Source of the DNA: Hyphomicrobium sp.
Lineage (GTDB): Bacteria; Pseudomonadota; Alphaproteobacteria; Rhizobiales; Hyphomicrobiaceae
Length of the DNA stretch: 41,958 nt
Direction of reading: 5' to 3'
Assembly: GCA_040080075.1 (NCBI GenBank)
Contig: JBEBJD010000254.1
Location: 1 to 41,958, forward strand
The position numbers and the translations under genes were made by a program. The notes below the pieces were generated by a model. The model made no database searches, was not told the DNA's origin, and was given only the letters and a program-made list of their open reading frames with translations. Positions 2-36,445 of this stretch are shown piece after piece; within the stretch, counting starts at the first letter, position 1, and every line of letters begins with the position of its first letter.

Positions 2-3000
2 ATCGCCGTGGGCTCGGCGGCGTCGACGGCGATAACCGCTATTGGCGCGGAGTTCGACAAGTTCTTCGGAATTGGCGAAGGCACGCAGGTTTTCAACAAC
101 ATCACAAATCAATTTGAAACGACTGACGTTATTGGTGCAGACTTTGCGACCAATGTGCGCACGTTGGGCATCGGTGCGCTGACATCATTCCTCACGGCTG
201 AGATTGCCGAAAGTTTGGGCATTAAAACCGACACGGCCGGCTTCTCTTTTTTCAATTATACAGCAAGTCAAGGCATCAATAAGCTGATCAGCTATGCCGT
301 CGCAAAGGTTGGCGAGGGGTTTAATTTTACCGAAGGGCTGAGCGGCGTCTTGTTCGGTGACGTTAGTACCGTCTTGTCGTCGCCCGTCTACACAGCCGCG
401 AACTTTGCCGCTTTCGCCGGGACCTATCTCGCTAAAGACATTGTCAAGATCGAGAATATCGGCGGTGCCATTGGACAAGCGATCGGCAGCGCCGTGGGAA
501 CCGTTGCCGGTATCGGCCTTGCCAGCTCAGCGCTCGCAATTGGCGTGTTTGGCCCGGCGGCGATCATTGTTGTTCCGTTCCTGGCAGCGTTTGGCGGGAC
601 GGCTATCGGCACATGGGTTGGCAACTTCATCGGGTCGCTGTTCCAGGACAACGGGTATGCCTATGCCAATCTCACGATGTGGAAAGGGCAAACCACATTC
701 ACAAAGTCTGCCATCAATACTGACGACTGGGATTGGGGTAACTCTGTCCAAAACATGCAACAGGCCATTTTCGGTGCGATGAAAAATATAGTGGCTGCTT
801 CCGGCGGAACCACCGCCGGGCATGTTCGCGTGTTCTTTGAGTATGTGAATAGAAGTGCACCAATTATTCGCATTACTGATGCTCCTCCCGGAACGAACTT
901 GGACATTCTGAAGGCTCTGAATGAAACTCCGACCTTAAGAACTGGAAATGGTCAGACCTACCGGCAAAGATACGGAGGCACGGTTTATGGAACCTACGGC
1001 TGGTTTAAGAAAGCTTCGACAGATGGAAAAGCTCTTGTGGACTGGGCGATTATCCGTGCATCCAAGGTCGCGCAATTCGATGGCGATTTTTGGGTCAGGC
1101 GCGCGGTTGGAACGAGCGATGCTATAACAGCGGCGGACTTTGGCCGTCAGATTAACTGGGCTCAGAATTACAGCGCCATAAAGAGCATCCTTGATCAGGT
1201 CGCAGGCACGCCCATTACCGTAAGCCGCCCCAATTTCAACGACGCTGTTGGAACATCGGCAGAAGCGGCCTGGCGTACAGCGCGTAAAATTCTGGTTGAG
1301 ATGGCTCCTGCTGACCGGGTGAATATAGGGACTTATGTGTCCACCGTGCTCTCGACGACCACAGCAGCGTCTGCCACGCTCCTTTTATCGGAAATCGTTC
1401 TGGCGAAAACCTTCGGTGATATTGTCGATGCTGTTACGGCGAATATTGGAGGAACCTGGACAGGGATCGCCGCTCCAAATTTCGGATTATACCATTCGAA
1501 CCAGCAAACAGTCGAATCGGATGCAGCTTTCGCAGCGCGGCTCGCCTCGACAGCGACCAACCTCGCCAGAACCGCTCTGGCCGCGGCGGCATCGACAGGC
1601 GACGCATTCGGCATCGCTGCGATTAGGCAGTCAACGGCAACTTCATCGCAAGTCTTGATGAATCAACTGGCCGTGGCGCTTTCTTTTAGTGCGAACGTCA
1701 AGGGGCTGGACACGGCAGATGCTGCCGATGACTCAACTCTTGTCAAAACGCTACGGTCCCTTGGCCTGACCACTTCGGCATTGACGTCTCCAAACTTCAA
1801 TAGTGTGACCCTCGACACTGCACCGCCGGCCGTTCCAACTGACGCAACTGATCCAAATTATGCCAAGGCTGTCGCTGATCGCGCAGCTTACGACGCGTCA
1901 AACACGGCATCTATTCAAAGCCTCATTATTGAATCGTTGAAGTCATCCACAATTGCAGGCAATCCCCGAGTCGTTGCTGCAGTAAAAGAGACGGCGGCGA
2001 CTACGATCGATATCCTGCTGAAACAATTGGCAACGGCGCGCGGGGCAAGCGTTTTGTTGGATGACCCAAACACGGGTTACCTGAAAATTCTCAGCGAACT
2101 CGGTGTGAATGTGAACACGCTGGGAGCGATGGACTTTAACTCAGCCACAATCACCGCCACGACAGATCCCGCGTATCAGGCGCAAATATTTGATGAGGCA
2201 ACGCGCATTGCGCAGCAGGCCTTGAATACCGCTAACATGTCAGGGGACCAAGCCCTCATCGCGGCACTGCAAACCAATCCAGCCTTAGCGCTGCAAATTG
2301 CGCAGACCTTTGAAGGTTTGGTGAAGGGCTTCGTAGATCAGATGATCGCTGACGGCGGGGCACTTATAAGCCTCGGTAATACCGGCTTCGGCAAGATCAA
2401 TTTCGCACTGATCGCGGCCGCAACAGGTGCAGACCGGGATGCAAAGATCCTTGAAGCAGCGAAGAGTTTGGCGTTCGATGCAGTTCACGGTGCTCGCTTC
2501 GAGGGTCTCGACCTTTATACGTCCCGCATGCTTGCCAACTCTACGGCAAAAACCTTCAATGAGTTGAGCGGCGACTCGATCGTGTTGCACGACTTCAAGG
2601 GCTATTTGTCAAACAAAGACGTTATCGATTCAATCATCAGGGCCAACATACAAACGACCTTTGCCGCAGCCTGGGCAGCGACATTGTTGGTAGCAGAAGG
2701 ACAAAAGACTGCCGGTCAAATATCTGCAGGCGAACTGCAATTATCTACTATTGCCGTTTCTGATTTCGCGGAGGGTTTCTCGAGCTTCTTGTCGCGTTTC
2801 GACGTGGGTTACTACAATGGCGTACTGTCGGATTTGTCCGTATCAATCGATGGCGCCGGCCTGCATGTTGATGTCCCGGGCCCCAACGCAAATGCCGATT
2901 TCACGGTTTCCAATACGATGATAGGGCTCACTCGTCTGGCAGACGGCGCGGCCGGCACGACAACAGCGGGTACCGGTGGCAACGACTTGTGGAACGCTGC

Positions 3001-3889
3001 CGATGGCGCTGGCAGCGCGTTTACTGACGGCACGCCGGAGACGGGACAGTCGAGCAACGACGTTCTGTTGGGTGGGACAGGCGTTGACACCATTAATGCT
3101 GGTGCAGGTAACGATTACATTGCTGGCGGTGCTGGAAATGACGTGCTGAACGGCGGCGCAGGCAAAGACGTTATCGACGGTGGCTTAGGTGCCGATGCCA
3201 TGAGCGGCAGCACCGGCGATGATATCTACATCGTCGACAACGCTGCTGACACAGTCGTCGAAAGCCTCAACGAGGGTATTGATACCGTCTACGCGTCGGT
3301 AAGCGCCACACTCGCAGCCAATGTCGAGAAACTGCAGCTCTCCGGCGCTGCAGCGATTGACGGAACGGGCAACGTTCTTGACAACACCATTATCGGCAAT
3401 TCCGCCAACAACGTTCTTTCGGGCGATTCCGGTAATGATATTCTTGTCGGCGGGGCTGGCAGTGACACGATCCGAGGCGGCGCGGGTAACGACTCCATCA
3501 TTTTTGGTAGCGGAGCGGGAGTGGATGTTATTGACAGCACAGGCGCCCTTGCAACCGACACTGACCGGCTTCTCTTTGACCGGACAATCTCCAATTCGTC
3601 AATTTGGTTTGAGAACGCGGGCAGCGACCTCAAAATCTCTATCCTCAATAGTGGGGGGATTTCCGATGGCCTGCTCGTCAAGGATTGGGATACCGCAGGA
3701 ATGACGCCGATCGACGAGTTCGTATTGGCAAATGGCAAAACGCTGCTTCGAGGCGACGTCGGTGCCTTGATCAGTGCCATGGCTGCCTTCTCGCCAAGCG
3801 CCATAGTTCAGTCGGCAAACGGCGGCAATATTGTAATTCCCGCTAGTGTACAGACAGCGATCGACAGCTCTCCATGGAAATCACTCTGA
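2..3889 (+). CDS. Large RTX-type (hemolysin-type calcium-binding repeat) secreted protein, 5'-partial; probable type I secretion substrate
   Basis: The frame is open from the window edge (codons at 2-7 precede the first start of ORF 8..3889), so the gene continues upstream. Two blocks of GGxGxD nonapeptides: 'GGTGVDTINAGAGNDYIAGGAGNDVLNGGAGKDVIDGGLGADAMSGSTGDD' (~nt 3060-3235) and 'GDSGNDILVGGAGSDTIRGGAGNDSIIFG' (~nt 3395-3515). A ~120-aa non-repeat tail follows, as in T1SS substrates. Gly/Ala-rich hydrophobic stretch at ~nt 455-650. Confidence 0.85.
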   Translation: MAVGSAASTAITAIGAEFDKFFGIGEGTQVFNNITNQFETTDVIGADFATNVRTLGIGALTSFLTAEIAESLGIKTDTAGFSFFNYTASQGINKLISYAVAKVGEGFNFTEGLSGVLFGDVSTVLSSPVYTAANFAAFAGTYLAKDIVKIENIGGAIGQAIGSAVGTVAGIGLASSALAIGVFGPAAIIVVPFLAAFGGTAIGTWVGNFIGSLFQDNGYAYANLTMWKGQTTFTKSAINTDDWDWGNSVQNMQQAIFGAMKNIVAASGGTTAGHVRVFFEYVNRSAPIIRITDAPPGTNLDILKALNETPTLRTGNGQTYRQRYGGTVYGTYGWFKKASTDGKALVDWAIIRASKVAQFDGDFWVRRAVGTSDAITAADFGRQINWAQNYSAIKSILDQVAGTPITVSRPNFNDAVGTSAEAAWRTARKILVEMAPADRVNIGTYVSTVLSTTTAASATLLLSEIVLAKTFGDIVDAVTANIGGTWTGIAAPNFGLYHSNQQTVESDAAFAARLASTATNLARTALAAAASTGDAFGIAAIRQSTATSSQVLMNQLAVALSFSANVKGLDTADAADDSTLVKTLRSLGLTTSALTSPNFNSVTLDTAPPAVPTDATDPNYAKAVADRAAYDASNTASIQSLIIESLKSSTIAGNPRVVAAVKETAATTIDILLKQLATARGASVLLDDPNTGYLKILSELGVNVNTLGAMDFNSATITATTDPAYQAQIFDEATRIAQQALNTANMSGDQALIAALQTNPALALQIAQTFEGLVKGFVDQMIADGGALISLGNTGFGKINFALIAAATGADRDAKILEAAKSLAFDAVHGARFEGLDLYTSRMLANSTAKTFNELSGDSIVLHDFKGYLSNKDVIDSIIRANIQTTFAAAWAATLLVAEGQKTAGQISAGELQLSTIAVSDFAEGFSSFLSRFDVGYYNGVLSDLSVSIDGAGLHVDVPGPNANADFTVSNTMIGLTRLADGAAGTTTAGTGGNDLWNAADGAGSAFTDGTPETGQSSNDVLLGGTGVDTINAGAGNDYIAGGAGNDVLNGGAGKDVIDGGLGADAMSGSTGDDIYIVDNAADTVVESLNEGIDTVYASVSATLAANVEKLQLSGAAAIDGTGNVLDNTIIGNSANNVLSGDSGNDILVGGAGSDTIRGGAGNDSIIFGSGAGVDVIDSTGALATDTDRLLFDRTISNSSIWFENAGSDLKISILNSGGISDGLLVKDWDTAGMTPIDEFVLANGKTLLRGDVGALISAMAAFSPSAIVQSANGGNIVIPASVQTAIDSSPWKSL

Positions 3890-4292: not shown

Positions 4293-7200
4293 ATGCAGGG
4301 ACATCTAAGGGACGCAGCGACCTGGAAAGATGCACGCACCGAAATTTACGGGATTCTTGGCGAGTCGGTTTGGATAATCCTGCTGGGCGCCGCGATCTCG
4401 GTCATCCTTTACCTCCCCGACCAGATCAGAGAGCTCTATCGAATTGAGATCGCCGAACGCGGAACAACCGGTTTCGCGCTACTGGCCATTCCAGTCGTAC
4501 TCATTGCTGAGCTAGTGTGGCTCGGCGCCAAGCTGGTGACAACCCATCGTCAAATGGGAGCGGAGGCGCCCCTTCGCTCCACCGACATAGTCGCAACCGC
4601 GCTGCCCGCGGGGCTCGGCACGCTGCCGCTCGTCGCTTTCGCGCTCGGGCTCTACTTTGCGTTGCCCGTGTTGGGAGGCACCATCGGCGAGGGGCAAGCG
4701 ATTGTCGGTCCCGCGTTCGATAAGTACAACGAGCAGCTCGCACGAGATTTTGGGACGCTGCAGAAGTTTGCACTGATCTCAGGCGGCGGTGCGGCCCTTT
4801 TCCTCGTCGGCTCGTTGCTTTTGTCGCATGTTTCCACGGCTTGGATGGCGGCAGCAAATCGAAGGTACTTTTGCACTTGGAGGGCGCTCGCCTTCAGCAC
4901 CGCCATGATCGCCGCTGCGACCGCGGCATTCTTTTTCTTCCCTGTGCCGATCTCGCGCAGCATTGGTGTGTTGGGCATGTTGACGGTGTTCACGCTGTGC
5001 GTCATCGCCACGACAGTGCACCTGACTGTGCTGTCACGTGAGCACCGCTGGCCGCTTATCGCGGTGCCGCTCGCCTTGGCGGTCGGCTTTTCAATCTTCG
5101 ATCTTAACGACAATCACGAGGTCCGTCGGATAACGACTAACGCGGCGGCGAAAGAGCGTCCCAAGAGGGCGCCGTTCGCAGATGACGAGTTCCTGAGTTG
5201 GTACGAAAATCGGCCGGACTTGGCGCAAACAACGGGCGACTATCCCGTATATATCGTCGCGGCGCAGGGCGGCGGAATTTATGCGGCCTACCAGGCCGCA
5301 ATCTTTCTGGCGCGGATGCAAGATGTCTGCCCGTCGTTCAAGGATCATTTATTCGCGATCAGCTCAGTCTCCGGCGGCAGCGTCGGCGGGGCGATCTTCA
5401 CTGCGGCACTTCAAACCATCGCCGCCTCCGGGGCGAGTGCTCCTCCAAAGCCCGTCGAGCCAATAGTACCGCCTGCGATCGGTGCACAGACCGTAGAAAA
5501 CACGTCGATCACCAAGCCAAGCCCATGTCCGGCAATCAAGAAGTTCATAGAGAGTGGCGCAGCCACCGACATGCAAAGCCTGGAGGCACCCGGGCCGCAT
5601 GAGACCGCCGTGCGCCGCATGTTGGCCAACGATCTACTCTCGCCTCTCATCGGCGCGACGTTGTTCACGGATTTCAGCCAGCGTTTCCTGTTTTGGCCAA
5701 TCGGCGTGTTCGATCGCGCCCGCACCCTAGAGGCGAGTTTTGAAGCCGCTTCGTCGCCGACCGGTACGGCCGGCACTGGCCCGCTGGCTCAACCATTCCT
5801 CGATCATTGGGACCCCGCACGCAATCGCGGACCGGCATTGCTGCTCAACGCTACGGACGCGGCGAGTGGCAAACGAGTTGTGATCTCTCCGTTCGTGGTC
5901 CAGTCGGCCGAACTGCAGCAGCGGACAACAAGCCTCGCGCATTTCCCATTCTGGCAGCAGACGGAGCCAGAAACGGAGATCGAGTCGCCGATAGACATTC
6001 CACTGTCGACCGCCGCCGGCATAAGCGCCCGTTTTCCGTGGCTGACACCTGCGGCAACCGTAACGGTCGTGGACGCCGCAACCAAGAAACACCAGAGCGT
6101 ACGTCTCGTAGATGGCGGCTACGTCGACAATTCCGGTGTCGAGACCGCCCTCGATTTGATCCGCAATTTGAGTAGCGTGGTCGAGAAGATTGCGCTCGTT
6201 CCCGCCGCGGCACAGAACGCGCGGGCCCTGCGGCCTGTCAAGCTCAGCCTAATAGCTCTGAGCGGCGGCGACTATCCACTTCGCACCTCGTTCTCCCTCG
6301 GCGAAACATTGGAACCCGTGCGGGCGATGTTCTCAACACGACAGTCGCGGGCCTACTTCGCGCTCGAACGGGCGCGCGAGGAATTGCCGCCGGCACCGCT
6401 CACCTCGAAGGATACGGGCAATAATGTTGTGCCTATTTCTGTCAGTAGCTTCCTCGCGTCAAAACTGGAGAGCCGCTTTTACGAGTTGCCCCTTGGCTGG
6501 GCGCTCGGCAATCGTACTCGCGACATCATCGAGCGGCAGAGCGGGCGCTTCTGGGAATGCCAGTTCGGCGCGAGCTTTGAACAGACGGACAATGCGGCCG
6601 CGCAGGCCGATTGCATTCAGATGCTCATTTATCATGAACTCAATCAGACCTTGGGGGAGGCGGCAGGACGAATCGCCGTCTCGGCCAAGCAAGCACCGCC
6701 CAAGCCTGGCCTGCGGCTCGACAACGCCGCCTTCCTCGCATGCGCCCGCCGCGGCCGGGAGTTCCCAAGGGAGTCATGGGCACTTCTGGGACTGCTTGCA
6801 ATCTGGGATCAACGGCCACAATGGACGGACGACCGGTGGCTGGCTTTTATTCTCGGCTACGTAGCGCACGAGACCGGCGGATTCAGCATCAGGAAGGAAA
6901 GCCTGGACTATCGAACTGCCGGGCGGATCATGGAAATTTGGCCGCAGCATTTTGCTACCATCGATGAAGCAGCCCAGTACGTTGGCCAGCCAGAGAAGCT
7001 GGCCAACAAGGTATACGGCGGAAGATTCGGCAATCGCGAACCCGATGACGGCTGGCGCTATCGTGGGCGGGGCCTGGTGCAGCTAACTGGCCGCGACGAG
7101 TACCGCCGCTACGGCCGTTTGATCGGCGTCGATCTCGAGAGCGTTCCGGACCTGATCCTCGATCCCGAGATCGGCGCGAAGGTCGCGTTTGCACAGGCAT

Positions 7201-7367
7201 TTCCGTTGGGAAGCATCAATAGACTTGCTCCATTCTTCCGGGAAGATCCGGCCGACTATGAGGGCGCCATTAGGCTGCTGCGCGGTGGCTCATTTGGGAT
7301 CGCAGAAATTGTCCTGAGAGTTAAGACGTTTGAAAGCTGCATCAAACAAACCAAGCGCGGGCAATAA
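4293..7367 (+). CDS. Fusion protein: N-terminal polytopic membrane domain + patatin-like phospholipase + C-terminal GH19/COG3179 chitinase-like (lysozyme-type) domain
   Basis: Single 1024-codon ORF; weak SD 'GAGAG' 6 nt before the ATG. About seven hydrophobic segments in the first ~270 aa. Patatin motifs: 'AAQGGGIYAAY', GxSxG 'GGSVG' (Ser codon 5379-5381) and 'VDGGYVDNSG' (Asp codon 6111-6113). GH19-like motifs: 'GYVAHETGGFSIRKESLDY' (Glu codon 6870-6872) and 'YRGRGLVQLTGRDEYRRYG'. Confidence 0.8.
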   Translation: MQGHLRDAATWKDARTEIYGILGESVWIILLGAAISVILYLPDQIRELYRIEIAERGTTGFALLAIPVVLIAELVWLGAKLVTTHRQMGAEAPLRSTDIVATALPAGLGTLPLVAFALGLYFALPVLGGTIGEGQAIVGPAFDKYNEQLARDFGTLQKFALISGGGAALFLVGSLLLSHVSTAWMAAANRRYFCTWRALAFSTAMIAAATAAFFFFPVPISRSIGVLGMLTVFTLCVIATTVHLTVLSREHRWPLIAVPLALAVGFSIFDLNDNHEVRRITTNAAAKERPKRAPFADDEFLSWYENRPDLAQTTGDYPVYIVAAQGGGIYAAYQAAIFLARMQDVCPSFKDHLFAISSVSGGSVGGAIFTAALQTIAASGASAPPKPVEPIVPPAIGAQTVENTSITKPSPCPAIKKFIESGAATDMQSLEAPGPHETAVRRMLANDLLSPLIGATLFTDFSQRFLFWPIGVFDRARTLEASFEAASSPTGTAGTGPLAQPFLDHWDPARNRGPALLLNATDAASGKRVVISPFVVQSAELQQRTTSLAHFPFWQQTEPETEIESPIDIPLSTAAGISARFPWLTPAATVTVVDAATKKHQSVRLVDGGYVDNSGVETALDLIRNLSSVVEKIALVPAAAQNARALRPVKLSLIALSGGDYPLRTSFSLGETLEPVRAMFSTRQSRAYFALERAREELPPAPLTSKDTGNNVVPISVSSFLASKLESRFYELPLGWALGNRTRDIIERQSGRFWECQFGASFEQTDNAAAQADCIQMLIYHELNQTLGEAAGRIAVSAKQAPPKPGLRLDNAAFLACARRGREFPRESWALLGLLAIWDQRPQWTDDRWLAFILGYVAHETGGFSIRKESLDYRTAGRIMEIWPQHFATIDEAAQYVGQPEKLANKVYGGRFGNREPDDGWRYRGRGLVQLTGRDEYRRYGRLIGVDLESVPDLILDPEIGAKVAFAQAFPLGSINRLAPFFREDPADYEGAIRLLRGGSFGIAEIVLRVKTFESCIKQTKRGQ

Positions 7368-7465
7368 TAAGATTATGGCGGCACCGAGCTTCAACGACTT
7401 GCGTGGAAGTCGAAACGCACTACGCCGATTTACGCAAGTCGCTCGACTGACCTGCCCCTGAACTT

Positions 7466-8413
7466 TCATCCAGTCTGACTTAGAGTCTTTTGGTTTAATA
7501 CTGCATCGTCTGGGTGATGAGCAACAGGCCAGATCGCGGAGACCTCATCGATCGCAGCGGGCTGGCCTGTTGCGGTGGCCGGCATAGGCACGAGACCGCT
7601 CGCGAACGCCGCCGGGGTCTGATAGTGGAGCGACGAATGCGGCCGCTCGGTATTGTAGTCGGTGACCCACAAGCCGAGTTCGTCGCGGGCGTGGGCCAGT
7701 CCGAAGAATAAGCGTTCGTTCAGAAGCTCGTCGCGCATGCGCCCATTAAAACTCTCGATGTAGGCGTTCTGCGTCGGCTTGCCAGGCGCAATGTAATGCC
7801 AATCGATCCGCCGATCCGCCGCCCACGACAGTACAGCGTTTGATGTGAACTCGGTGCCGTTGTCCGACACGATCATGCGGGGCTTGCCCCGCTGTTCGAT
7901 GAGCAGGGTCAGTTCGCGCGCCACACGCTTGCCTGAGATCGACGTGTCGGGCACTGCTGCTAAACACTCGCGCGTCACATCATCGACAATGTTCAAAACC
8001 CGGAACCGCCGTCCACTGGCAAACTGATCATGCACGAAGTCGAGGCTCCAGCGCGCGTTGGCGCAATCTGCGATCAGAATCGGCGCACGCATCCCAACCG
8101 CACGGCGGCGGGCTTTGCGCCGGCGAACGCTCAAGCCTTCTTCACGATAAAGCCGATAGATCCAATTGCGGCCCGAGACCTCGCCTTCACGTCGCAACAG
8201 AATGAACAAACGACGGTAACCAAACCGCCGCCGCTCATGCGCCAACGCCCGAAGACGCTCGCGAAGCGCCGTGTCGGGCGCCCGGCGCGTCCGGTAACGC
8301 AGGCTCGTCCGATCCATCGAAAGCAGCCGGCACGCCCGCCGCTCGCTCAGCCCGTGCACCCCACAGGCATGCGCGACAGCACTCCGCTTCGCTGCGGGCG
8401 TCACCATTTTTTT
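7466..8413 (-). CDS. IS3-family transposase OrfB (DDE catalytic part), expressed as an OrfAB fusion by -1 frameshifting
   Basis: The -1 frame from the A7 run reads 'KKMVTPAAKRSAVAHACGVHGLSERRACRLLSMDRTSLRY...'. DDE residues sit in 'WSLDFVHD', 'IVSDNGTEFTS' and 'ESFNGRMRDE'. The stop codon (7466-7468) lies inside the left IR. The 5' part of the tracked 373-aa ORF (8414-8587) is only out-of-frame overlap with orfA. Confidence 0.85.
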   Translation of the reverse strand, partial: KKMVTPAAKRSAVAHACGVHGLSERRACRLLSMDRTSLRYRTRRAPDTALRERLRALAHERRRFGYRRLFILLRREGEVSGRNWIYRLYREEGLSVRRRKARRRAVGMRAPILIADCANARWSLDFVHDQFASGRRFRVLNIVDDVTRECLAAVPDTSISGKRVARELTLLIEQRGKPRMIVSDNGTEFTSNAVLSWAADRRIDWHYIAPGKPTQNAYIESFNGRMRDELLNERLFFGLAHARDELGLWVTDYNTERPHSSLHYQTPAAFASGLVPMPATATGQPAAIDEVSAIWPVAHHPDDAVLNQKTLSQTG

Positions 8414-8667
8414 GAATTGAGGTCTTTCAGAACCGCAACGTCCAGCATCGTCTCGGCCAGCAGCTTCTTCAGCTTGGCGTTCTCGTCTTCCAGCCCACGA
8501 AGCCGCTTGGCGTCTGAGACGTCCATGCCGCCGTACTTGGCTTTCCAGTTGTAAAACGTCGCCGTCGAGATCCCATGGCGGCGGCAAAGGTCGGGCGTCT
8601 TGGCGCCAGCCTCGCTCGCCCGCAATATCCCGATAATCTGCTCTTCCGTGAACCGTGATCGCTTCAT
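8401..8667 (-). CDS. IS3-family transposase OrfA (helix-turn-helix / leucine-zipper part)
   Basis: 'MKRSRFTEEQIIGILRASEAGAKTPDLCRRHGISTATFYNWKAKYGGMDVSDAKRLRGLEDENAKLKKLLAE' is the canonical IS3/IS407-type OrfA sequence. It ends 'NSKKW*' across the A7 run. Confidence 0.9.
   Translation of the reverse strand: MKRSRFTEEQIIGILRASEAGAKTPDLCRRHGISTATFYNWKAKYGGMDVSDAKRLRGLEDENAKLKKLLAETMLDVAVLKDLNSKKW
8407..8413 (-). other. Programmed -1 ribosomal frameshift heptamer A_AAA_AAA of the IS3 transposase
   Basis: Minus strand reads TC[A AAA AAA] TGG TGA in the orfA frame, an X_XXY_YYZ heptamer placed exactly at the orfA/orfB overlap. Confidence 0.7.
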
Positions 8668-8943
8668 CGTCCGTCCCCTCTCAGAGGTTCGGACTCTAAT
8701 TCAATTTGGATGAATTCGGCAGGGGCAGGTCAGCATGCCCTAATTCAGTATTGCCAGGTCCGCAGATCACTCGATAGCGGAAACTCGACGTCTGCCGGCC
8801 ATCGGCAGTAGGCGGGCCGGGCAATTGCAATCCCAGCGGCAATCCGGCTTGGAGTTCAATAGACGAAGACGGAAAGCTGGCGAATACGACGGCGGTTTCG
8901 AACCGTAAAAAAAGTGTAGACGTTCATCGCTCAACGAAATTGG

Positions 8944-10299
8944 CTATCCAATTGCATTTGCGCGCGGCAATTCTAGGCTGACGGCAAGGCCGCCCAGAGG
9001 CGACAGGCCAAGCCGGACATCGCCCCCATAGAGACGGGCGAGGTCACGCACGATGGCAAGCCCAAGACCTGCACCCGGCTTATTGCTGTCCCACCGTTCT
9101 CCAATATTGAAAACGACTTCATAAGCTTCTGGCGGCAGACCGGGACCATCGTCTTCGACAACGATAACAATCTTGTTTCCCGGATGAACAACGCTGGCTG
9201 ATATGTGCACGGACGACTTACAGTGTTTGCAGGCGTTGTCGGCAAGATTGCCTAGCATCTCGTTGAGATCCTGTGCATCACAAGCCACATCAAGCATTTC
9301 CGGGACACGGTTCTCGATCGCAATGCTTCGATCTTTATGCAACCGCGCAAGTGCAGTTGTCACTTCGCTCGCAGACTTTAGGGTCGATGCGATCGTGCCT
9401 GGCGTGGCACGCATGGCGACCGCGCGGGCGCGGGCAACCTGGTACTCAATCTGAGTCTGCATCCTGCGGCACTGATCAAGGATCGTCACCGAAGCCTGCG
9501 CCAGCCCTTGATCCTTGATGCGATAAGCTTCGTCGGTCAGTATAGCGAGCGGTGTTCTCAGCCCATGCGCCAGATTTCCGGCCTGGGTACGCGCCCGCTG
9601 TATAAGTTCAGACGAATTGGAAAGCAAAGAATTCAAGTCGTCGACAAGAGGCTGCACTTCGAGCGGAAAACGGCCATCGAGGCTCTTAGAACTACCTGAT
9701 CGCACGGACGCAAGGCCAGCGCGTAGCTGCGTCAGCGGTCTAAGTGCCAACATGATTAGCAAGCTGGCGGCCGCGATCATGGCAGCGGCAAGTGCGCCGA
9801 GCGCTCCATAGAGCGTGTTGTCGAAACGGCGCATGACCACTTCGAGGTGACGCGCATCGGTTCCCACAAGAAAACGCAGCGGCGGCTCTGACGGATTATT
9901 CCACTCGGCACGTTCGGCAACAAGCATCCGGCCGGTTGGACCTGCGATTTCATGGGTGTGAGCAACAGTGTCAGCAGCGTTATCATTTGGCGTCCTCAGT
10001 ATCGCGCCCTGCAAAGATGCCGAGCGAGCGATAACGCGTCCCTCCCTTTGGATTTCCCAATAAAACCCCGACTGAGATAGATCATATCGTGGATCGCTGA
10101 AGCTGCGCTGAAGTTGCGCACCCGACGCGTCAATTTTTGCCAGCCGCTTTAATTCGTCGAGGTGGACGAAAAGCTCTTCGTGGAACTGTTCTGTGACATG
10201 CTGACGGAACACGGCCGACAACACGGCACCAGCTGCGGCGACGCCTAACGCAGTCCAGATAAAGGCCGAAACGATCAGCCGGGTTCTCAAAGTCCGCAT
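8944..10299 (-). CDS. Two-component sensor histidine kinase (PhoQ-like architecture)
   Basis: Two hydrophobic segments ('LIVSAFIWTALGVAAAGAVLSAVF' and 'LYGALGALAAAMIAAASLLIMLAL') flank a ~150-aa periplasmic loop. H-box 'LAHGLRTPLAIL', N-box 'LGNLADNACKH', G-box 'GAGLGLAIVRDLARLYGG'. SD 'GGAGAA' upstream; 11 nt after the regulator stop. Confidence 0.9.
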   Translation of the reverse strand: MRTLRTRLIVSAFIWTALGVAAAGAVLSAVFRQHVTEQFHEELFVHLDELKRLAKIDASGAQLQRSFSDPRYDLSQSGFYWEIQREGRVIARSASLQGAILRTPNDNAADTVAHTHEIAGPTGRMLVAERAEWNNPSEPPLRFLVGTDARHLEVVMRRFDNTLYGALGALAAAMIAAASLLIMLALRPLTQLRAGLASVRSGSSKSLDGRFPLEVQPLVDDLNSLLSNSSELIQRARTQAGNLAHGLRTPLAILTDEAYRIKDQGLAQASVTILDQCRRMQTQIEYQVARARAVAMRATPGTIASTLKSASEVTTALARLHKDRSIAIENRVPEMLDVACDAQDLNEMLGNLADNACKHCKSSVHISASVVHPGNKIVIVVEDDGPGLPPEAYEVVFNIGERWDSNKPGAGLGLAIVRDLARLYGGDVRLGLSPLGGLAVSLELPRANAIG

Positions 10300-10310
10300 T
10301 TATTTCTCCG

Positions 10311-10955
10311 CTATTCCAGACGGTAGCCGAGGCCGCGAATCGTCTTGATGAAGCCGGCGCCAAGCTTACGGCGCAAGCGGCTAATGTAGACTTCTATGGT
10401 GTTCAGTTCCCGGATATCATCCAATGTATAGAGATGGTCTGCCAGTTCCGATTGCGAAACGATGCGGCCTTTGCGATGCATGAAATAGTTGAGCATCTGC
10501 AGTTCGCGAGCGGTAAACTCGACGGGCCGGCCTTCGACGGTTACTTGCCCGGCCGCTGTATCCAATGCGATCTTACCATGCGTGATTACGGAGTTTGCCA
10601 AACCCGCATTTCGCCGGATTAGGGCTTTGAGCCGTGCAGCCACTTCAGGGATATTGAACGGTTTGGTAATGTAGTCATCGGCACCAGAGTTGAGCCCCTC
10701 GACCTTCTCGGACCAGGTGCCCCGCGCGGTCAGCACCAGAACCGGCATCAATAGCCCCTCTTTGCGCCAGCGTTTGAGGACATCCAACCCCTGCATCTGG
10801 GGTAGTCCCAGGTCAAGAATGACCACATCATACTGCTCATCCTTGCCCATGTGATAGCCGTCGGCACCATTGTCAGCGCGCTCGATGACAAAGCCCGCCG
10901 AAACCAAGCCGGTCATCAGACGGCTAGCTATTTCATTGTCATCCTCAACCAACAA
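10311..10955 (-). CDS. OmpR/PhoB-family response regulator
   Basis: Receiver motifs 'LVEDD', 'DVVILDLGLP', 'VLVLTARG' and 'GADDYITKPF'. Winged-helix part 'ELQMLNYFM...IEVYISRLRRKL...IRGLGYRLE'. The tracked start is TTG 10955; the true start may be ATT at 10964 (see findings). Confidence 0.9.
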   Translation of the reverse strand: MLVEDDNEIASRLMTGLVSAGFVIERADNGADGYHMGKDEQYDVVILDLGLPQMQGLDVLKRWRKEGLLMPVLVLTARGTWSEKVEGLNSGADDYITKPFNIPEVAARLKALIRRNAGLANSVITHGKIALDTAAGQVTVEGRPVEFTARELQMLNYFMHRKGRIVSQSELADHLYTLDDIRELNTIEVYISRLRRKLGAGFIKTIRGLGYRLE

Positions 10956-12153: not shown

Positions 12154-13212
12154 ATGATCACTTCGCCACGTTGCTTTAGGCTTTTGCTGCCGCTGCCACT
12201 CCTCACTATCTTCGCGCACGGCGCCGGAGCCAGCGACCTGCCTGTTCCAAACGAGCAGATCGAAGCGCTTGGAATACGGCTCGTAGAGGTTGCCGGAACA
12301 GAATCACAGCCACTCGCCGTTTTGCCAGCAACAGTAATTCCAGCAGCTAAAGCCCGCACATTGGTGCCGTTGCCGTTCTCAGGCACAATCGTCAAGACCC
12401 ATGTCCTGGTTGGCCAGGACGTCAAGAAGGGACAGGACATCGCGACCATCTCCAGTCAGGATTTCCACGAGATCCAAGCCAAGATCATCGAAAGTGATGC
12501 CGAGCTGATGAAGGCGAAACTCAACGCTGAGCGCCAGCGCATTCTGGCTGACAAAAAGGTCATCGCCAGCAACGACGCATTGGAAGCAGAAGAGCTAGTC
12601 CAGAAAATCCGCACCATAGGCGCAGAATTCAAGGACCATGCAGAGAGCTTTGGCCTGCGCAAGGTCGACGAATTTTCATTTGTGGTCGTTTCGCCTGCTG
12701 ACGGTAAGGTCGTGGAGTTGAGCGCAGTCAATGAGAAGGCCGATGCAACGGCCGGTATTGCTATGTTGCGAACGAGTGCCGAGCGTTGGCTTGAGGTGCA
12801 GATTTCCGTCGATCTCGTCGCCCGCACACAAGTTGGCGACCGTGTCGAAATCGACGGGAAGCCTGCTGGAAATGTCATTTCTATAGGATCGGCAATCGAT
12901 CGATTGACCCGGTCCGCAACAATGCTGGTGTCACTTCCCCACGACACAGATCTGGTGGAAGGCCAAAACGTCTCTGTTACCATTCTTGGACAGGTCAGCA
13001 AGAGCGCCTCAGCCGTTCCTGCTGCGGCCGTCACGTTCATTAATGGCAAGCCCTCGGTATTTCTTCGCACGGCCCAGGGTTTCAAAAAGCTCGAGGTTAC
13101 GCTCTTGGGTAAGTCACCATTGGTCGCCACCGTTTCGGGCGATCTTACGGCAGGTCAGCTCGTTGCCGCTAGCCGGCTTCCCGAACTCGAAAACCTCGTC
13201 GCGGTGGATTAG
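12154..13212 (+). CDS. RND efflux periplasmic adaptor (membrane fusion protein, CzcB/CusB-type)
   Basis: Signal-like N-terminus 'LLLPLPLLTIFAHGAGA', lipoyl/hairpin region 'VKKGQDIATISSQDFHEIQAKIIESDAELMKAKLNAERQRIL', beta-barrel C-terminal half. Stop is 3 nt before the RND pump start. Confidence 0.8.
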   Translation: MITSPRCFRLLLPLPLLTIFAHGAGASDLPVPNEQIEALGIRLVEVAGTESQPLAVLPATVIPAAKARTLVPLPFSGTIVKTHVLVGQDVKKGQDIATISSQDFHEIQAKIIESDAELMKAKLNAERQRILADKKVIASNDALEAEELVQKIRTIGAEFKDHAESFGLRKVDEFSFVVVSPADGKVVELSAVNEKADATAGIAMLRTSAERWLEVQISVDLVARTQVGDRVEIDGKPAGNVISIGSAIDRLTRSATMLVSLPHDTDLVEGQNVSVTILGQVSKSASAVPAAAVTFINGKPSVFLRTAQGFKKLEVTLLGKSPLVATVSGDLTAGQLVAASRLPELENLVAVD

Positions 13213-13215
13213 TTC

Positions 13216-16200
13216 ATGCTCAGACGCTTGATCGAGTTTTCGCTCACCCAGCGAGTTTTAATCCTTGTTCTGGGCGTGCTGCTTGCGGCGTCGGGAACCT
13301 ACGCCTATCTGCACATTCCGATTGATGCCTTCCCTGACATTTCTCAGACTCAGGTGAAGATCATCATGAAAGCTCCGGGCATGACGCCCGAGGAAGTCGA
13401 GGCGCGCGTCATTACGCCGGTCGAGATGGAGTTGCTGGGCATTCCCCACCAAGTCATTCTGCGCTCGTCCGCCAAATATGCGCTTGCCGACATCACTGTC
13501 GACTTCCACGATGGCACTGATGTCTATTGGGCCCGCCAACAAGTCGGCGAGCGGCTCGCGGGTGTGCAAGGCGACCTGCCAGGTGGTGTTTCTGGCGGTA
13601 TGGCACCGATCTCTACGCCTTTGTCGGAAGTTTTCATGTTTACGATCGAGAGCGACAGCCTGTCTCTCGACGAACGGCGTGCCCTGCTCGACTGGACAAT
13701 AAGGCCGGCGCTGCGCACCATCCCAGGCGTTGCCGACGTCAACGCACTTGGGGGTTATGTCCGCACATTTGAAGTTGTCCCCAACAGCGGCGCACTGGCA
13801 CAAGCCGGGCTCGGCGTATCGCAACTTGCCGAATACATCGATGCAAGCAATCGCAACGACGGTGCTGGCCGCCTTTCGGAGGGTGAGAAGGCCTTGGTCG
13901 TTCGCGCCGAGGGGGCCATCAAATCCATTGCCGATCTCGAACAGGTCGTCGTCAAGAACGAAGCCGGCCGCATCCTACGTTTGCGTGATGTTGCCAGTGT
14001 GCGGACTGGCAGCATGACACGTTACGGCGCCGTAACTGCTAACGGCAAAGGCGAGGCAGTGGAAGGCATCGTCTTGTCGCTGCGTGGCGCCGATGCCAGC
14101 GCCGTAACCAAAGCTGCCCGCCAGAAAATTGAAGATCTGAAGAAAGTGCTTCCCGAGGGCGTCTCGCTTCACACATTCTATGACCGGTCCGATCTGGTGC
14201 AGAGGGCGGTTGGAACCGTACAAAAGGCGCTGGTCGAAGCCACCATCCTTGTTGTCATACTTTTGCTCGCGTTTTTGGGAAACTTGCGCGCGGCCCTCGT
14301 GGTCGCCGTTAGTTTGCCGCTGGCGGCGCTGTTTGCTTTCGTCCTCATGGGCTACGCTGGCATGTCGGCCAACCTGATGAGCTTGGGTGGGCTTGCCATT
14401 GCCATCGGCCTGATCGTCGACGCCGCCGTTGTGGTGGTTGAAAATACGGTTGAAGCGCTAGAACACGAAGGCGTGCAAGACCGGGTACCATTGCTGCACC
14501 AGATCTATCGCGCCGCAAGCGATGTTGCTGTGCCTGTCGCGTCCGGTATCACTATTATCTGCCTGGTGTTTTTACCTCTCATGTCGTTGCAGGGCCTGGA
14601 GGGCAAGCTGTTCGCACCAGTGGCGCTCACCATTATTTTCGCGCTCAGCGGATCACTGTTGATTTCGCTGACGCTGGTCCCTGTTCTGTCATCATATGTG
14701 TTGAAATCGCAACCCCACAGCGTGCCACTCCTGATGCGCGTGCTGAACGCTGGCTATGTGCCGCTTTTGAAGCTCTGCCTCAAACGCCCGGTCATCGTAT
14801 ATACTGCAGCCATGGCTGGCTTGGCCGCCATGGTCTACGCATATGGGGCCTTGGGTAAATCGTTCATGCCAACAATGGACGAAGGCGCAGTCATCATCCA
14901 GACTACAAAACTTCCATCGATAGGTCTTAGCGCCAGTCTCGACGGCGATATCAGTGTTCAGAAGCACATCCTGGCCAATGTTCCAGAAGTAGACAGGATC
15001 GTGTCTCGCGTCGGTAGTGATGAACTTGGCCTTGATCCGATGGGCCCCAACGAGACGGACAATTTCCTTGTGCTGAAGCCCAAGGAAAGCTGGCGCGATC
15101 CCGACAAGGAGAAACTTGTCGAGCATCTGCGCCAGGCTGTCGCGGTCATGCCCGGACTGGAGTTCTCGTTCACGCAGCCGATCGAGATGCGCACGGCTGA
15201 AATGCTGACAGGGTCGCGCGGCGATCTCGCCGTGAAGATCTTCGGTCCGGAACTGGCTGTTCTCTCGGATCTTGCGGGCCAAGTGCAGCAAACGATCGGC
15301 AAAGTGCCTGGGGCCTCCGAGGTGTCGACGGTTGCCAACGATACGGTCGACTATCTGCAAATCATCGTCGACCGCATGGCGGCAGGCCGCACCGGGCTGT
15401 CGGCCACCAGGATAGAAGACGAGTTGCGGGCACTCTTGGAGGGCACGCGTGCTGGCACTATATCGGAGGCTAACCGGCGAACGAACATCATCATCAAAGG
15501 ACAAGAAGAGATCCGGCAATCGCCCGAACTGTTCACAACGACCCAATTTGCAGCCGGCGATGGCGGACTGGTCCGTATCGGCGACGTCGCCAAGATCACG
15601 CGCAGTACGGGCCCTGTTAAAATCGACCGCGAAAACGCATCGCGGTTCGCGCTCGTCCAGGCCTATGTCTCCGGACGCGACTTAGTTGGCTTTGTCGAGG
15701 ACTCGCAAAAGGCCGTCATGGCACAAGTTCCACTGCCAGCCGGGTACACTATGGTCTGGGGCGGTGAATTCGAAAATCAGCGCCGGGCGGCGGCGCGTCT
15801 CGCCATCGTTGTTCCTCTGGCGCTCGTTATGATCGCTGTGGTGCTGTTTGCAACACTCAGGTCGCTCAGGCAATCGATGCTTATTCTCTCGAATGTACCA
15901 TTTGCGATGGTCGGTGGCGTCTTGGCGCTATGGGCCTCGGGTGAGTACCTTTCTGTGCCTGCCTCAGTAGGCTTCATCGCGCTACTGGGTATTGCCGTAC
16001 TCAATGGACTGGTGCTCGTTACTTACTTTAATCAGCTGATCGCGGAGGGAACCCCAGTCGACAGAGCCGTCCTGGAGGGAGCCGTGCGGCGATTGCGGCC
16101 CGTGCTCATGACGGCGAGCATTGCGGCCTTCGGACTTGTGCCTTTGCTTTTTGCTACGGGGCCGGGATCCGAGATTCAAAAACCTCTGGCGATTGTCGTG

Positions 16201-16335
16201 ATCGGTGGTCTGATCACGTCAACCGCACTTACGCTGCTGCTGCTGCCGGTTCTATTCGCTCGCTTCGGCGTCGCCACTGAGGACGTGCGGCCCAAGGACA
16301 TGGAGCCCCGGTGGATTAACCCGTTTGCAGTGTGA
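13216..16335 (+). CDS. RND efflux pump, heavy-metal-efflux (CzcA/CusA) family
   Basis: 1039 aa. N-terminus 'LIEFSLTQRVLILVLGVLL...PIDAFPDISQTQVKII' is typical of HME-RND. The TM4 signature 'AIGLIVDAAVVVVEN' (~nt 14400-14445) has a single Asp as in CusA rather than the DD of AcrB-type pumps. Two large periplasmic loops and 12 hydrophobic segments. Confidence 0.9.
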   Translation: MLRRLIEFSLTQRVLILVLGVLLAASGTYAYLHIPIDAFPDISQTQVKIIMKAPGMTPEEVEARVITPVEMELLGIPHQVILRSSAKYALADITVDFHDGTDVYWARQQVGERLAGVQGDLPGGVSGGMAPISTPLSEVFMFTIESDSLSLDERRALLDWTIRPALRTIPGVADVNALGGYVRTFEVVPNSGALAQAGLGVSQLAEYIDASNRNDGAGRLSEGEKALVVRAEGAIKSIADLEQVVVKNEAGRILRLRDVASVRTGSMTRYGAVTANGKGEAVEGIVLSLRGADASAVTKAARQKIEDLKKVLPEGVSLHTFYDRSDLVQRAVGTVQKALVEATILVVILLLAFLGNLRAALVVAVSLPLAALFAFVLMGYAGMSANLMSLGGLAIAIGLIVDAAVVVVENTVEALEHEGVQDRVPLLHQIYRAASDVAVPVASGITIICLVFLPLMSLQGLEGKLFAPVALTIIFALSGSLLISLTLVPVLSSYVLKSQPHSVPLLMRVLNAGYVPLLKLCLKRPVIVYTAAMAGLAAMVYAYGALGKSFMPTMDEGAVIIQTTKLPSIGLSASLDGDISVQKHILANVPEVDRIVSRVGSDELGLDPMGPNETDNFLVLKPKESWRDPDKEKLVEHLRQAVAVMPGLEFSFTQPIEMRTAEMLTGSRGDLAVKIFGPELAVLSDLAGQVQQTIGKVPGASEVSTVANDTVDYLQIIVDRMAAGRTGLSATRIEDELRALLEGTRAGTISEANRRTNIIIKGQEEIRQSPELFTTTQFAAGDGGLVRIGDVAKITRSTGPVKIDRENASRFALVQAYVSGRDLVGFVEDSQKAVMAQVPLPAGYTMVWGGEFENQRRAAARLAIVVPLALVMIAVVLFATLRSLRQSMLILSNVPFAMVGGVLALWASGEYLSVPASVGFIALLGIAVLNGLVLVTYFNQLIAEGTPVDRAVLEGAVRRLRPVLMTASIAAFGLVPLLFATGPGSEIQKPLAIVVIGGLITSTALTLLLLPVLFARFGVATEDVRPKDMEPRWINPFAV

Positions 16336-16460: not shown

Positions 16461-17858
16461 ATGCCAGCGCGCAATAGACGAATTCTATGGTCACTGTCAC
16501 TGTCTCTGATTGTGCCGGCGGCGCTGATTGGCTGCGCTGATCCGATTGGCGATTCGGCAACATCCGCGATCCCCGCGCCGGGCTCGCTTACTTCAGACCG
16601 GCAGCTTCCGTTGCGCCCTTGGGTTCCCGATCCGCAGGCTGTCCCCGGATCGGATGGTCCGGCAAGGGTAACTGAAACGATTGGGTTGCAGGCTGCGGTC
16701 TCGCGCGCCGTGGAACACAGTCCTCAGCTTAAAGCCGCGTTCATGGAGATCGAGGCACGTCACGGCGAGGCCGCGCAGGCGTCCTACAGGATAAACCCAG
16801 AAGTTAGCCTCGACATTGAGAACTTCGCCGGTACGAAATCCAAGACCGGCTTTGATGTTGCCGAGGAGACATTGCAGATCTCTCAGACGATCGAACTCGG
16901 AGACAAGCGACTGAAGCGCCTGCGCTCTGCTAGCCTCGAGGCTTCGGTCGCCGGTTGGGACTATGAGGCCGCGAGATTGTCTGTTGCGGCAAAAGCCGCT
17001 GACTATTTTGTCGACGTTCTTGCGAGCCAGGAGAGAATAACTGTTCTCGACGGCTTCATTGCGACCGCCGCGAATACAAAAAACGCGGTGGAAGCGCAGG
17101 TCAAGGGGGGCAAGGCGTCTCCGATCGATCTCGACCGGTCTAATATCGTGCTGGCGCGCGCCAAGGCGCAACGCGAAGCCGAGGCCGCCAAGAACGCAGC
17201 ATCACGTCAATCGCTGTCGGCCCTATGGGGCGGTGGCGGCAGGGCTTTGTTCGCAAGTGTAGCCGGAAAACTCGATAAGGGCAGGAGTGTGCCGTCGATC
17301 TTGCAGGTCAAGTCGATGCTCGATTCAAACCCTGCGCTCGCCCGCTGGGGTGACGAGATTGGCAAGCGCTACGCGATCCTCGATGTCGAACATTCCAAAT
17401 CCATCCCGGATTTCAAGGTCGGCTTAGGAACAAGAGTCTTCAATGAAGATGGCAGCGCGGCACTCGTTGCGTCCGTATCTGTCCCGCTTCAGGTATTCGA
17501 TCGCAACGAAGGAAATATCGCAGCGGCCGAGCGGCGAATCCAGCGGTCGCTCTATGAGGAGCAATCGGCCAGGCGCGATATGACGTCGGCGTTGACGGAG
17601 ATAATTGGCGCCTTGAATGTCGCCCATGCCCAGATCCGGGCTCAGGAAGACGACATCCTGCCCTCCGCTCGCTCGGCCTACGAACGAACCCGTACAGGCT
17701 ACAGCGAGGGAAAGTTTGACTTGCTACATCTATTGGATACGCAAAGGACGCTGCTGGAAAGCCAGTTTGAAGCCGTCAATGCGCGGGCAGACTTCACCAA
17801 GGCTAAAGTGCGACTCGATATGCTGACCGGGCAAGGTGCCGGATCCTCGCAGGAGTAA
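16461..17858 (+). CDS. Outer-membrane efflux factor lipoprotein (TolC/CzcC family)
   Basis: SD 'GGGGGAG' upstream. Lipobox 'ALIGC'. 'LQAAVSRAVEHSPQLKAAFMEIEARHGEAAQASYRINPEVSL' and a second internal repeat are typical of OEP-family proteins. Confidence 0.85.
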   Translation: MPARNRRILWSLSLSLIVPAALIGCADPIGDSATSAIPAPGSLTSDRQLPLRPWVPDPQAVPGSDGPARVTETIGLQAAVSRAVEHSPQLKAAFMEIEARHGEAAQASYRINPEVSLDIENFAGTKSKTGFDVAEETLQISQTIELGDKRLKRLRSASLEASVAGWDYEAARLSVAAKAADYFVDVLASQERITVLDGFIATAANTKNAVEAQVKGGKASPIDLDRSNIVLARAKAQREAEAAKNAASRQSLSALWGGGGRALFASVAGKLDKGRSVPSILQVKSMLDSNPALARWGDEIGKRYAILDVEHSKSIPDFKVGLGTRVFNEDGSAALVASVSVPLQVFDRNEGNIAAAERRIQRSLYEEQSARRDMTSALTEIIGALNVAHAQIRAQEDDILPSARSAYERTRTGYSEGKFDLLHLLDTQRTLLESQFEAVNARADFTKAKVRLDMLTGQGAGSSQE

Positions 17859-19705: not shown

Positions 19706-19775
19706 CCTCGTCATCGACGCCGTGGATTTGGAAGACATTCTTCGCAATATCAATGCCGACGGTGCCAGTCTGCAT
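19701..19775 (-). pseudogene. IS110-family transposase 5' remnant (first ~25 codons)
   Basis: From ATG 19775 the minus strand reads 'MQTGTVGIDIAKNVFQIHGVDDEGA'. This matches the characteristic IS110-family N-terminus (G-[IL]-D-[IL]-AK-x-x-FQ-[IV]-HG-[VI]-D). It then runs directly into the IS66 fragment in another frame. Confidence 0.6.
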
Positions 19776-21653: not shown

Positions 21654-21699
21654 GCGGAACAAGGGCATCCCTTGTTTGATGACCCTTCATGAGGGGCAT

Positions 21700-36285: not shown

Positions 36286-36445
36286 AACGTTCAGTCTTTC
36301 TGCATACCTCGAACCAACAGAACCTGACACTTCGCCTGATGCCAATTGTCATCGCCGCCACCGTTAACTCGTCTGGACTGAATACATCCCGCTTGGGGAA
36401 AAAAGTGACACTAACTCCACATTGAGCCGGGCGCTCACGGATCGT

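Follow-up and report, generated by a model that had tools for sequence, protein, structure and literature searches.

The DNA analyzed here, hereafter the window, is a stretch of 41,958 nucleotides from Hyphomicrobium sp. (assembly GCA_040080075.1, contig JBEBJD010000254.1), whose left part contains a gene for a protein of 1024 amino acid residues (Table 1). This protein is genuine and combines, in a single polypeptide, a seven-helix transmembrane domain, a patatin-type lipase domain and a GH19 lysozyme-like domain. The initial annotation of the window, made from its letters alone, had described one uninterrupted open reading frame (ORF) at 4293-7367 with these three parts, about seven hydrophobic helices within the first ~270 residues, and GGG, Ser363, Asp607 and Glu860 at the codons listed in Table 1. 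The ORF listing with its translation, a hydropathy scan, AlphaFold2 and Foldseek, PHROG and PDB matches and full-length homologues all agree with this description, and two further GH19 residues, Glu869 and Thr932, are also present. The identical protein of 1024 residues is annotated on an ENA contig, no NCBIfam family matched it, and its AlphaFold2 model, built from 35 homologues, has a mean predicted local distance difference test score (pLDDT) of 83.7 and a predicted template modeling score (pTM) of 0.83.

An ORF encoding RTX repeats (8-3889, more than 1293 residues) lies ~400 bp upstream of the gene on the same strand; it may extend past the left edge of the window, and no type I secretion genes were found beside it within the window. 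Downstream, the initial annotation had noticed an insertion sequence (IS) 80 bp past the stop codon, which we identified as an IS3-family element (7447-8733) with perfect 14-bp terminal inverted repeats (CTGACCTGCCCCTG) and two overlapping transposase ORFs on the minus strand. A promoter and terminator scan around the gene gave nothing exceeding the shuffled expectation.

Table 1. Features of the 1024-residue protein and of its gene, in window coordinates.
Feature	Residues	Position	Strand	Basis
Complete gene	1-1024	4293..7367	+	ATG at 4293, stop at 7365-7367; ORF listing and translation
N-terminal polytopic membrane domain	1-271	4293..5105	+	Hydropathy scan, AlphaFold2 helices
Motif P42-D-Q44-x-x-E47-x-Y49-R50, end of TM1	42-50	4416..4442	+	Family conservation
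Motif N272-D273-N274-H275, directly after TM7	272-275	5106..5117	+	Family conservation
Patatin/cPLA2-type acyl-hydrolase domain with long insertions	317-800	5241..6692	+	Pfam, Foldseek, homologues
Oxyanion-hole glycines (predicted)	326-328	5268..5276	+	GGG in at least 298/301 aligned patatin domains
Cys346-Cys412, putative disulfide	346, 412	5328..5330 and 5526-5528	+	Kept in 276/301 and 261/301; pairing proposed from sequence order
Predicted nucleophile Ser363, G361-G-S363-V-G365 elbow	363	5379..5381	+	Invariant in A1; 275/293 aligned members (94%)
Predicted catalytic Asp607, D-G-G motif (VDGGY from residue 606)	607	6111..6113	+	273/273 aligned members
Cys756-Cys774, 18-residue loop, putative disulfide	756-774	6558..6614	+	Both invariant in A1; 239/242 and 207/207 aligned members
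GH19 endolysin-type lysozyme-like module (C-terminal 220 residues)	805-1024	6705..7364	+	PHROG, PDB, Foldseek
Cys817-Cys1016, putative disulfide	817, 1016	6741..6743 and 7338-7340	+	Kept in 159/161 and 155/161
Predicted catalytic Glu860 (HETGG from residue 859), equivalent to PaGH19Lys E51	860	6870..6872	+	161 family modules: Glu 85, Asp 65
Predicted second catalytic Glu869, equivalent to PaGH19Lys E60	869	6897..6899	+	Glu in 122/161 family modules
Thr932 in Q-L-T, equivalent to PaGH19Lys T129	932	7086..7088	+	161 family modules: Thr 48, Val 57

The two catalytic domains had been proposed in the initial annotation from their motifs, and Pfam by itself does not recover them in the window protein, which stays under the cut-off with both Patatin (PF01734, residues 325-620, E 0.002, 18.7 bits, gathering cut-off 27.7) and Glyco_hydro_19 (19.2 bits, cut-off 25.5). 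Nevertheless, homologues together with PHROG, PDB and Foldseek comparisons confirmed both domains. In the case of the lipase, homologues clear the PF01734 cut-off (P0150, P0207 and L082, with 46.1, 40.9 and 39.2 bits, respectively) and many others have a precomputed PF01734 match, and in a Foldseek search of the model against PDB the middle of the protein matched CapE (5.7e-5), VipD, cPLA2, PlpD and iPLA2-beta. Judging from the model, the patatin/cPLA2 alpha/beta fold is present in the window protein, and the middle domain is a patatin/cPLA2-type hydrolase with a predicted Ser363-Asp607 dyad, for which we predict acyl-hydrolase activity. The mean pairwise identity between homologues is highest in the lipase (50%, compared with 33% in the GH19 module and 31% in the membrane domain), which suggests that the lipase is the domain under strongest constraint. 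About 6% of the aligned members have an alanine or a glycine at position 363 while GGG and Asp607 are kept, and these may be pseudo-enzymes.

The window protein shares with the known patatin/cPLA2 lipases (CapV/CapE, Legionella VipD, Pseudomonas ExoU and PlpD, and human cPLA2 and iPLA2-beta) a putative glycine-rich oxyanion loop, the G-x-S-x-G elbow and the aspartate of the D-G-G motif, and with cPLA2 also a long serine-to-aspartate spacing with insertions. It departs from them in several respects. After Gly326-Gly328 the sequence continues I-Y-A-A, so that Tyr330 stands at the position of the usual arginine/lysine, and an alanine at that of the last glycine, of the G-G-G-x-[KR]-G motif; tyrosine is the rule at this position in the family (283 of 301 members, arginine in 11), and its presence in place of the phosphate-binding arginine hints at another head group, that is, at a substrate that may not be a standard phospholipid. 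Three conserved cysteine pairs also set the family apart. Moreover, whereas the relatives are cytosolic, injected or autotransported, and are found in a context of activation by cyclic nucleotides, ubiquitin or Rab proteins, the window protein lacks such a context and has its lipase fused to seven transmembrane helices, with a probably periplasmic location. In bacteria, the patatin lipases known so far serve almost exclusively in attack or suicide, as toxins that are injected or as suicide effectors of cyclic oligonucleotide-based antiphage signaling systems (CBASS).

The C-terminal module matched the endolysin family phrog_181 (1.5e-40) and, in PDB, the endolysins PWe1 (9ms6, 1e-19) and SPN1S (4ok7, 6e-16); with the family profile, the match to PDB endolysins reached 6e-30. 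Foldseek superposed residues ~805-1024 on 4ok7 and 9eoi with TM-scores of 0.73 and 0.79, respectively, and stand-alone GH19 proteins of 197-300 residues matched the module, many at E ≤ 1e-30, with identities of up to 48%. In the GH19 endolysin PaGH19Lys (9eoi), the active site is formed by H50, E51, E60, Y103, Q127, T129, I187, N188 and R197, and the E51V mutation abolishes lysis (PMC12329726). The alignment with 9eoi showed that His859, Glu860, Glu869, Tyr908, Gln930 and Thr932 are retained in the window protein, with an arginine aligned to N188; Gln930 and Thr932 fall within the second GH19 motif quoted in the initial annotation, YRGRGLVQLTGR, which corresponds to residues 923-934. The module thus has in common with the GH19 endolysins (SPN1S, PaGH19Lys, PWe1 and PHROG 181) the fold and the H-E...E and Q-x-T residues, and differs from them in being the C-terminal domain of a membrane protein of 1024 residues, in the conserved Cys817-Cys1016 pair, in the arginine at the position of Asn188 and in having no holin or phage context: phage genes, such as those for a holin or spanin, are not seen beside the gene, either in the window or at the homologue loci.

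In the family as a whole, the catalytic triad is changed in most GH19-bearing members. The canonical Glu/Glu/Thr triad, two catalytic glutamates and a residue that positions water (threonine or serine in GH19 endolysins), is kept in 37 of 161 GH19 modules, including that of the window protein, and 48 of the 161, corresponding to the main Bradyrhizobium clade, have Asp/Glu/Val instead. We consider that the module of the window protein, which retains the residues for muramidase activity, probably cleaves peptidoglycan, and that in most relatives it is probably a wall-binding module or one of altered specificity.

In the N-terminal domain, a 19-residue Kyte-Doolittle scan delimited seven hydrophobic segments, taken as transmembrane helices (TM) 1 to 7 (residues 21-39, 61-79, 113-131, 159-177, 198-216, 224-242 and 253-271), and the AlphaFold2 model is helical throughout residues 2-268, with high pLDDT. 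Pfam scans of 14 such domains of the family gave no consistent family, the scattered single matches to XK-related, DUF4271, EpsG and DUF6056 in different members being judged spurious, and the domain was also without a significant Foldseek match in PDB. Two polar motifs are strongly conserved. At the end of TM1, Pro42, Gln44, Glu47, Tyr49 and Arg50 are invariant in both alignments examined (A1 and A2, the latter covering only the membrane domain), and in the broad family Gln44 is kept in 75 of 76 and Glu47 in 70 of 76 sequences; directly after TM7, His275 is invariant in A1 and kept in 74 of 76, and Asp273 is invariant in A2. The residues Pro42/Gln44/Glu47/Tyr49/Arg50 and Asp273/His275 would lie on the same face of the membrane as the lipase domain. 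Given these invariant polar residues, the membrane domain seems to do more than anchor the protein passively.

When 5.8 billion proteins were searched, 408 of the 8000 candidates scored were homologues with E ≤ 1e-3, which places the architecture well beyond chance. The majority of these homologues are full length, and so are nearly all of the top 120, with 950-1110 residues and 34-56% identity. In the source databases they are listed as "predicted chitinase", "patatin-like phospholipase family protein" or "hypothetical". Relatives occur in at least 565 species (scan of one genome per species), and the profile of the membrane domain alone (A2) retrieved, from 1.84 billion representatives, at least 1151 clusters with E ≤ 1e-3; at the stricter threshold of E ≤ 1e-10 there were 485. 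GH19 is carried by a long form, which was observed in Bradyrhizobium, Hyphomicrobiaceae, Allosphingosinicella and uncultured Alphaproteobacteria. A short form of 690-850 residues, which matches only residues ~30-785, is present in Alphaproteobacteria, Burkholderiales, Cyanobacteria, Acidobacteriota, Planctomycetota, Verrucomicrobiota and others, so that most phyla in which the family occurs lack GH19.

Among 329 collected family sequences, 160 contain the membrane domain, patatin and GH19, as in the window protein, and 137 contain the membrane domain and patatin (297 with both); the remainder, 28 with the membrane domain alone and 4 without a match to it, were taken as fragments. In none of the 329 is the membrane domain paired with a different recognized enzyme domain. 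Accessory domains vary: in P0207 a VHL-beta domain occupies the C-terminal place of GH19, and P0177 has an N-terminal GYF_2 domain, which we counted toward a periplasmic orientation of the family. These architecture counts and the modules of P0207 and P0177 indicate that the seven helices and patatin constitute an obligate core, with the C-terminus as a slot for accessory modules, and that GH19 is, from the sequences compared, a clade-specific and optional addition that most family members lack. Uninterrupted homologues of 999-1073 residues, encoded on complete chromosomes of B. ottawaense, B. arachidis and B. centrosematis, rule out an assembly fusion. Two metagenome contigs have the gene split into two calls (P0250/P0004, of 890 + 172 residues, and P0251/P0045, of 896 + 154 residues), with the GH19 end as a separate ORF; these may be frameshifts or sequencing errors.

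The orientation in the membrane was judged indirectly, from loop charge, cysteine conservation and the location of the GH19 substrate. Averaged over the 35 homologues, the net charge of the loops is ~+5.9 on the N-terminal side and ~-1.8 on the C-terminal side, and the short TM4-TM5 loop has 4-6 lysine/arginine residues across the family; with seven helices, this bias places the N-terminus in the cytoplasm and the C-terminus outside. The soluble part, of ~750 residues, contains exactly six cysteines, all of them conserved, which form three sequential pairs (Table 1), a pattern that seems typical of disulfide-bonded extracytoplasmic proteins. The pair Cys817/Cys1016, which would link the first and last helices of the GH19 module, is found only where this module is present, and its conservation exceeds that of the catalytic residues of the module. 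Peptidoglycan, the substrate of GH19 muramidases, is located in the periplasm. Taken from these sequence features, a periplasmic location of both catalytic domains appears quite likely.

The neighboring genes were compared in homologue loci of different lineages. They are unrelated between lineages, apart from synteny within Bradyrhizobium, where one syntenic chromosomal locus holds the gene in many species: YkuD and polysaccharide genes in B. ottawaense, ribonucleotide reductase in Allosphingosinicella, and, in one metagenome-assembled genome, a tol-pal cluster with, across the family gene from it, a sensor kinase/response-regulator pair. The closest relatives (50-56% identity) adjoin genes for a GMC oxidoreductase, SelO or a TIR-NB-ARC-TPR protein; the genes downstream of them are unrelated, which lends no support to the earlier proposal that the IS may have displaced partners of the window gene. 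In ~85 loci no conserved sensor, signaling or immunity gene was found beside the homologues. Conserved operon partners were also rejected by clustering of the ORFs within four genes on each side of the target in 73 loci, which gave a single recurrent pair, restricted to the Bradyrhizobium clade and present neither in the window nor in other clades, formed by a 433-residue protein without Pfam match and a RoxA-like dihaem cytochrome c. This pair lies downstream, on the same strand, of long genes of the Asp/Glu/Val type (L009, 11401-15031, and 13 other loci).

Some observations concern the loci of the closest relatives. P0002 is encoded near a large TPR protein, and P0005 near a TIR-NB-ARC-TPR STAND protein and a phage-type integrase; the loci of the two closest relatives (L091, 407-2719, and the JGI contig of P0005) suggest that this sub-clade tends toward variable regions.

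Taking these data together, we propose, with a probability of roughly 55%, that the protein is a resident, stand-alone enzyme of the inner membrane, which faces the periplasm and is involved in turnover or remodeling of envelope lipids, possibly with local remodeling of the wall, and not in defense or attack. The seven-helix domain, with its N-terminus in the cytoplasm, would hold the lipase at the periplasmic face, where the disulfide-stabilized Ser363-Asp607 acyl hydrolase would act, and the cluster of Gln44, Glu47, Arg50 and His275 would probably help to pass membrane lipid into the lipase active site. The GH19 module would bind peptidoglycan and, in the window protein, probably also cleave it. 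The seven helices and the lipase may be an ancient obligate core, to which GH19 would have been added later as an accessory, guiding the enzyme to the wall or linking it there, and the gene would work alone, without partner genes. We hold the statements on architecture as far more certain than those on physiology.

Polytopic membrane domains joined to periplasmic enzymes, and inner-membrane lipases with a function other than attack, have precedents. In OafA and OafB, of the acyltransferase-3/SGNH type, a polytopic membrane domain that likewise has conserved polar residues is fused to a periplasmic serine hydrolase/transferase that acts on envelope polymers; the likeness is one of analogy only, as patatin does not have the SGNH fold and the membrane domains have no relation in sequence or Pfam. 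PlaF is a single-pass inner-membrane phospholipase A1 of P. aeruginosa that remodels membrane lipids, and has in common with the window protein that it is a resident inner-membrane lipase with a proposed role in lipid homeostasis rather than attack; it differs in its alpha/beta-hydrolase fold, its one transmembrane helix and the lack of a cell-wall module, and is not homologous.

Several points weigh against a resident periplasmic enzyme of lipid turnover. A crude lysine/arginine count per sequence, made with a crude transmembrane predictor, is near balance (38 sequences with the C-terminus out and 31 with the C-terminus in), TM7 is a helix of just 12 residues in the AlphaFold2 model, TM3 is weakly hydrophobic across the family, and six lysine/arginine residues within 25 residues past TM7 of the window protein would favor the cytoplasm. 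The window protein and its closest relatives are encoded in variable regions with IS, integrase, TIR-STAND, TPR, CHAT or caspase genes, a setting in which a role in conflict would be equally fitting. An unregulated periplasmic lipase and muramidase should, in addition, endanger the cell, so that some gating must exist, and the literature search found no experiment on any member of the family.

A more specific version, which we regard as possible and put forward tentatively, is that the seven helices, with Gln44/Glu47/Arg50/His275, and patatin form one machine that would extract inner-membrane lipid and hydrolyze or transfer its acyl chain in the periplasm, the GH19 clade coupling this machine to peptidoglycan. 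Since Tyr330 replaces the phosphate-binding arginine, the substrate of such a machine may not be a phospholipid.

Another explanation, already raised in the initial annotation as self-lysis or abortive infection, is a single-gene suicide or programmed-lysis device, in which the seven helices would sense membrane damage or infection and then free the lipase and the muramidase against the cell's own envelope. The window protein, like its clade, keeps both the complete lipase dyad and the complete GH19 triad, patatin lipases serve as effectors in CBASS, with CapE among the fold matches, and the window protein and its two closest relatives are found in variable regions near IS, integrase, TIR-NB-ARC-TPR, TPR, CHAT and caspase-like genes. 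However, the PADLOC defense models gave no match, and the homologue loci show no conserved gene for a cyclase, a sensor or another partner. CBASS CapV/CapE are encoded in an operon with a CD-NTase cyclase and match a defense model, whereas neither is the case for the window gene and its homologues (no CD-NTase cyclase was found beside any homologue in the loci examined). The shared chromosomal locus of many Bradyrhizobium species is also at odds with such a device, and, as GH19 is missing or has a degenerate triad in most members, killing by two activities does not seem to be the function for which the family was selected. We therefore find it unlikely.

It is also conceivable, and in our view rather improbable, that the soluble domains are cytoplasmic, either because TM7 does not cross the membrane or because the number of helices is even; the lipase would then act on the inner leaflet, and GH19, without access to the wall, would be vestigial or a repurposed binding domain. 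The near balance of charges, the short TM7, the basic residues that follow it and the degenerate GH19 catalytic residues of most members would fit this topology. Against it stand the family-averaged loop charge, which favors a cytoplasmic N-terminus with an external C-terminus, and the conservation and pairing of 6/6 cysteines of the soluble domains, with the GH19 pair more conserved than the catalytic residues, as expected of a folded extracytoplasmic domain. In addition, stand-alone endolysin-type proteins still share 44-48% identity with the GH19 module of the window clade.

That the protein is an antibacterial or anti-host toxin which reaches other cells as ExoU, a type VI secretion Tle lipase or PlpD do is very improbable, despite the resemblance of the patatin fold to VipD, ExoU and PlpD and the presence of a DUF900 hydrolase elsewhere in the window. 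Type VI Tle lipases and the type III effector ExoU are linked to a secretion apparatus, an adaptor or chaperone and an immunity gene, whereas none of these, nor PAAR/VgrG, was found near the target gene in the window or in the ~85 homologue loci. PlpD, of type Vd, has a POTRA domain and a C-terminal 16-strand beta-barrel; according to Pfam and the AlphaFold2 model neither is present here, the C-terminus being an all-helical GH19 module. The seven conserved helices, with their invariant polar motifs, are fused to the lipase in every member, which fits a resident membrane enzyme better than the antibacterial toxin considered in the initial annotation.

Finally, the suggestion that the protein serves as a release or lysis factor for the adjacent RTX protein is hardly credible: apart from the RTX gene on the same strand in the window, an RTX neighbor was observed for one other Hyphomicrobium homologue, whose RTX protein resembles that of the window in nonapeptide repeats only, RTX-like neighbors were found in 0 of 73 other loci, and RTX proteins leave the cell by type I secretion and not by lysis, so that, on the sequences compared, the adjacency is coincidental.

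A full-text literature search found neither the architecture nor any family member described. The two catalytic superfamilies are well known, and databases already list the family, under generic names; what appear to be unreported are the unclassified seven-helix membrane domain, the obligate fusion of this domain to a patatin lipase of probably periplasmic location and the recruitment of a partly degenerate endolysin module. A large family in which the lipase is built permanently onto seven transmembrane helices, and is probably periplasmic, suggests that such lipases have an as yet unstudied part in the lipid metabolism of the envelope, as housekeeping or stress enzymes, in soil Alphaproteobacteria, including the agriculturally important Bradyrhizobium, and in several other phyla. 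The GH19 fusion is a natural case of a cell recruiting an endolysin domain, and, as the catalytic residues were lost and the fold kept in most lineages, a catalytic versus a wall-binding role is directly testable. If the helices and patatin do work as an integrated lipid machine, this would connect membrane-lipid turnover with the cell wall in a way not recognized before, or amount to acyl transfer directed to the wall, and would represent a new class of envelope enzymes with at least 1151 sequence clusters in many phyla. The family also calls for caution, in that a domain content of patatin and lysozyme is not enough, alone, to call a defense system.

The rest of the window contains further genes of some interest. 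Past the IS3-family element, a two-component system is encoded on the minus strand (histidine kinase, 8944-10299; response regulator, 10311-10955), divergent from a czc-like resistance-nodulation-division efflux operon with a membrane-fusion protein (12154-13212), an AcrB-type pump (13216-16335) and an outer-membrane factor (16461-17858). A gene for a LigT-like 2'-5' RNA ligase (18337-18822) adjoins an IS66-family transposase ORF of 286 residues (18893-19753), which is probably a remnant. A conflict-type cluster at 21457-29732 is composed of a caspase-like gene with Peptidase_C14 and Sel1 repeats (21457-24804, plus strand), a second Peptidase_C14 gene (24801-26516, plus strand) and a convergent gene for a TPR-CHAT protein (26928-29732, minus strand). 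The DUF900 alpha/beta-hydrolase (33388-34569, plus strand) adjoins a YkuD L,D-transpeptidase with PG_binding_1 (34639-36345, minus strand), and a protein with cysteine-rich repeats is encoded at 36446-37897.

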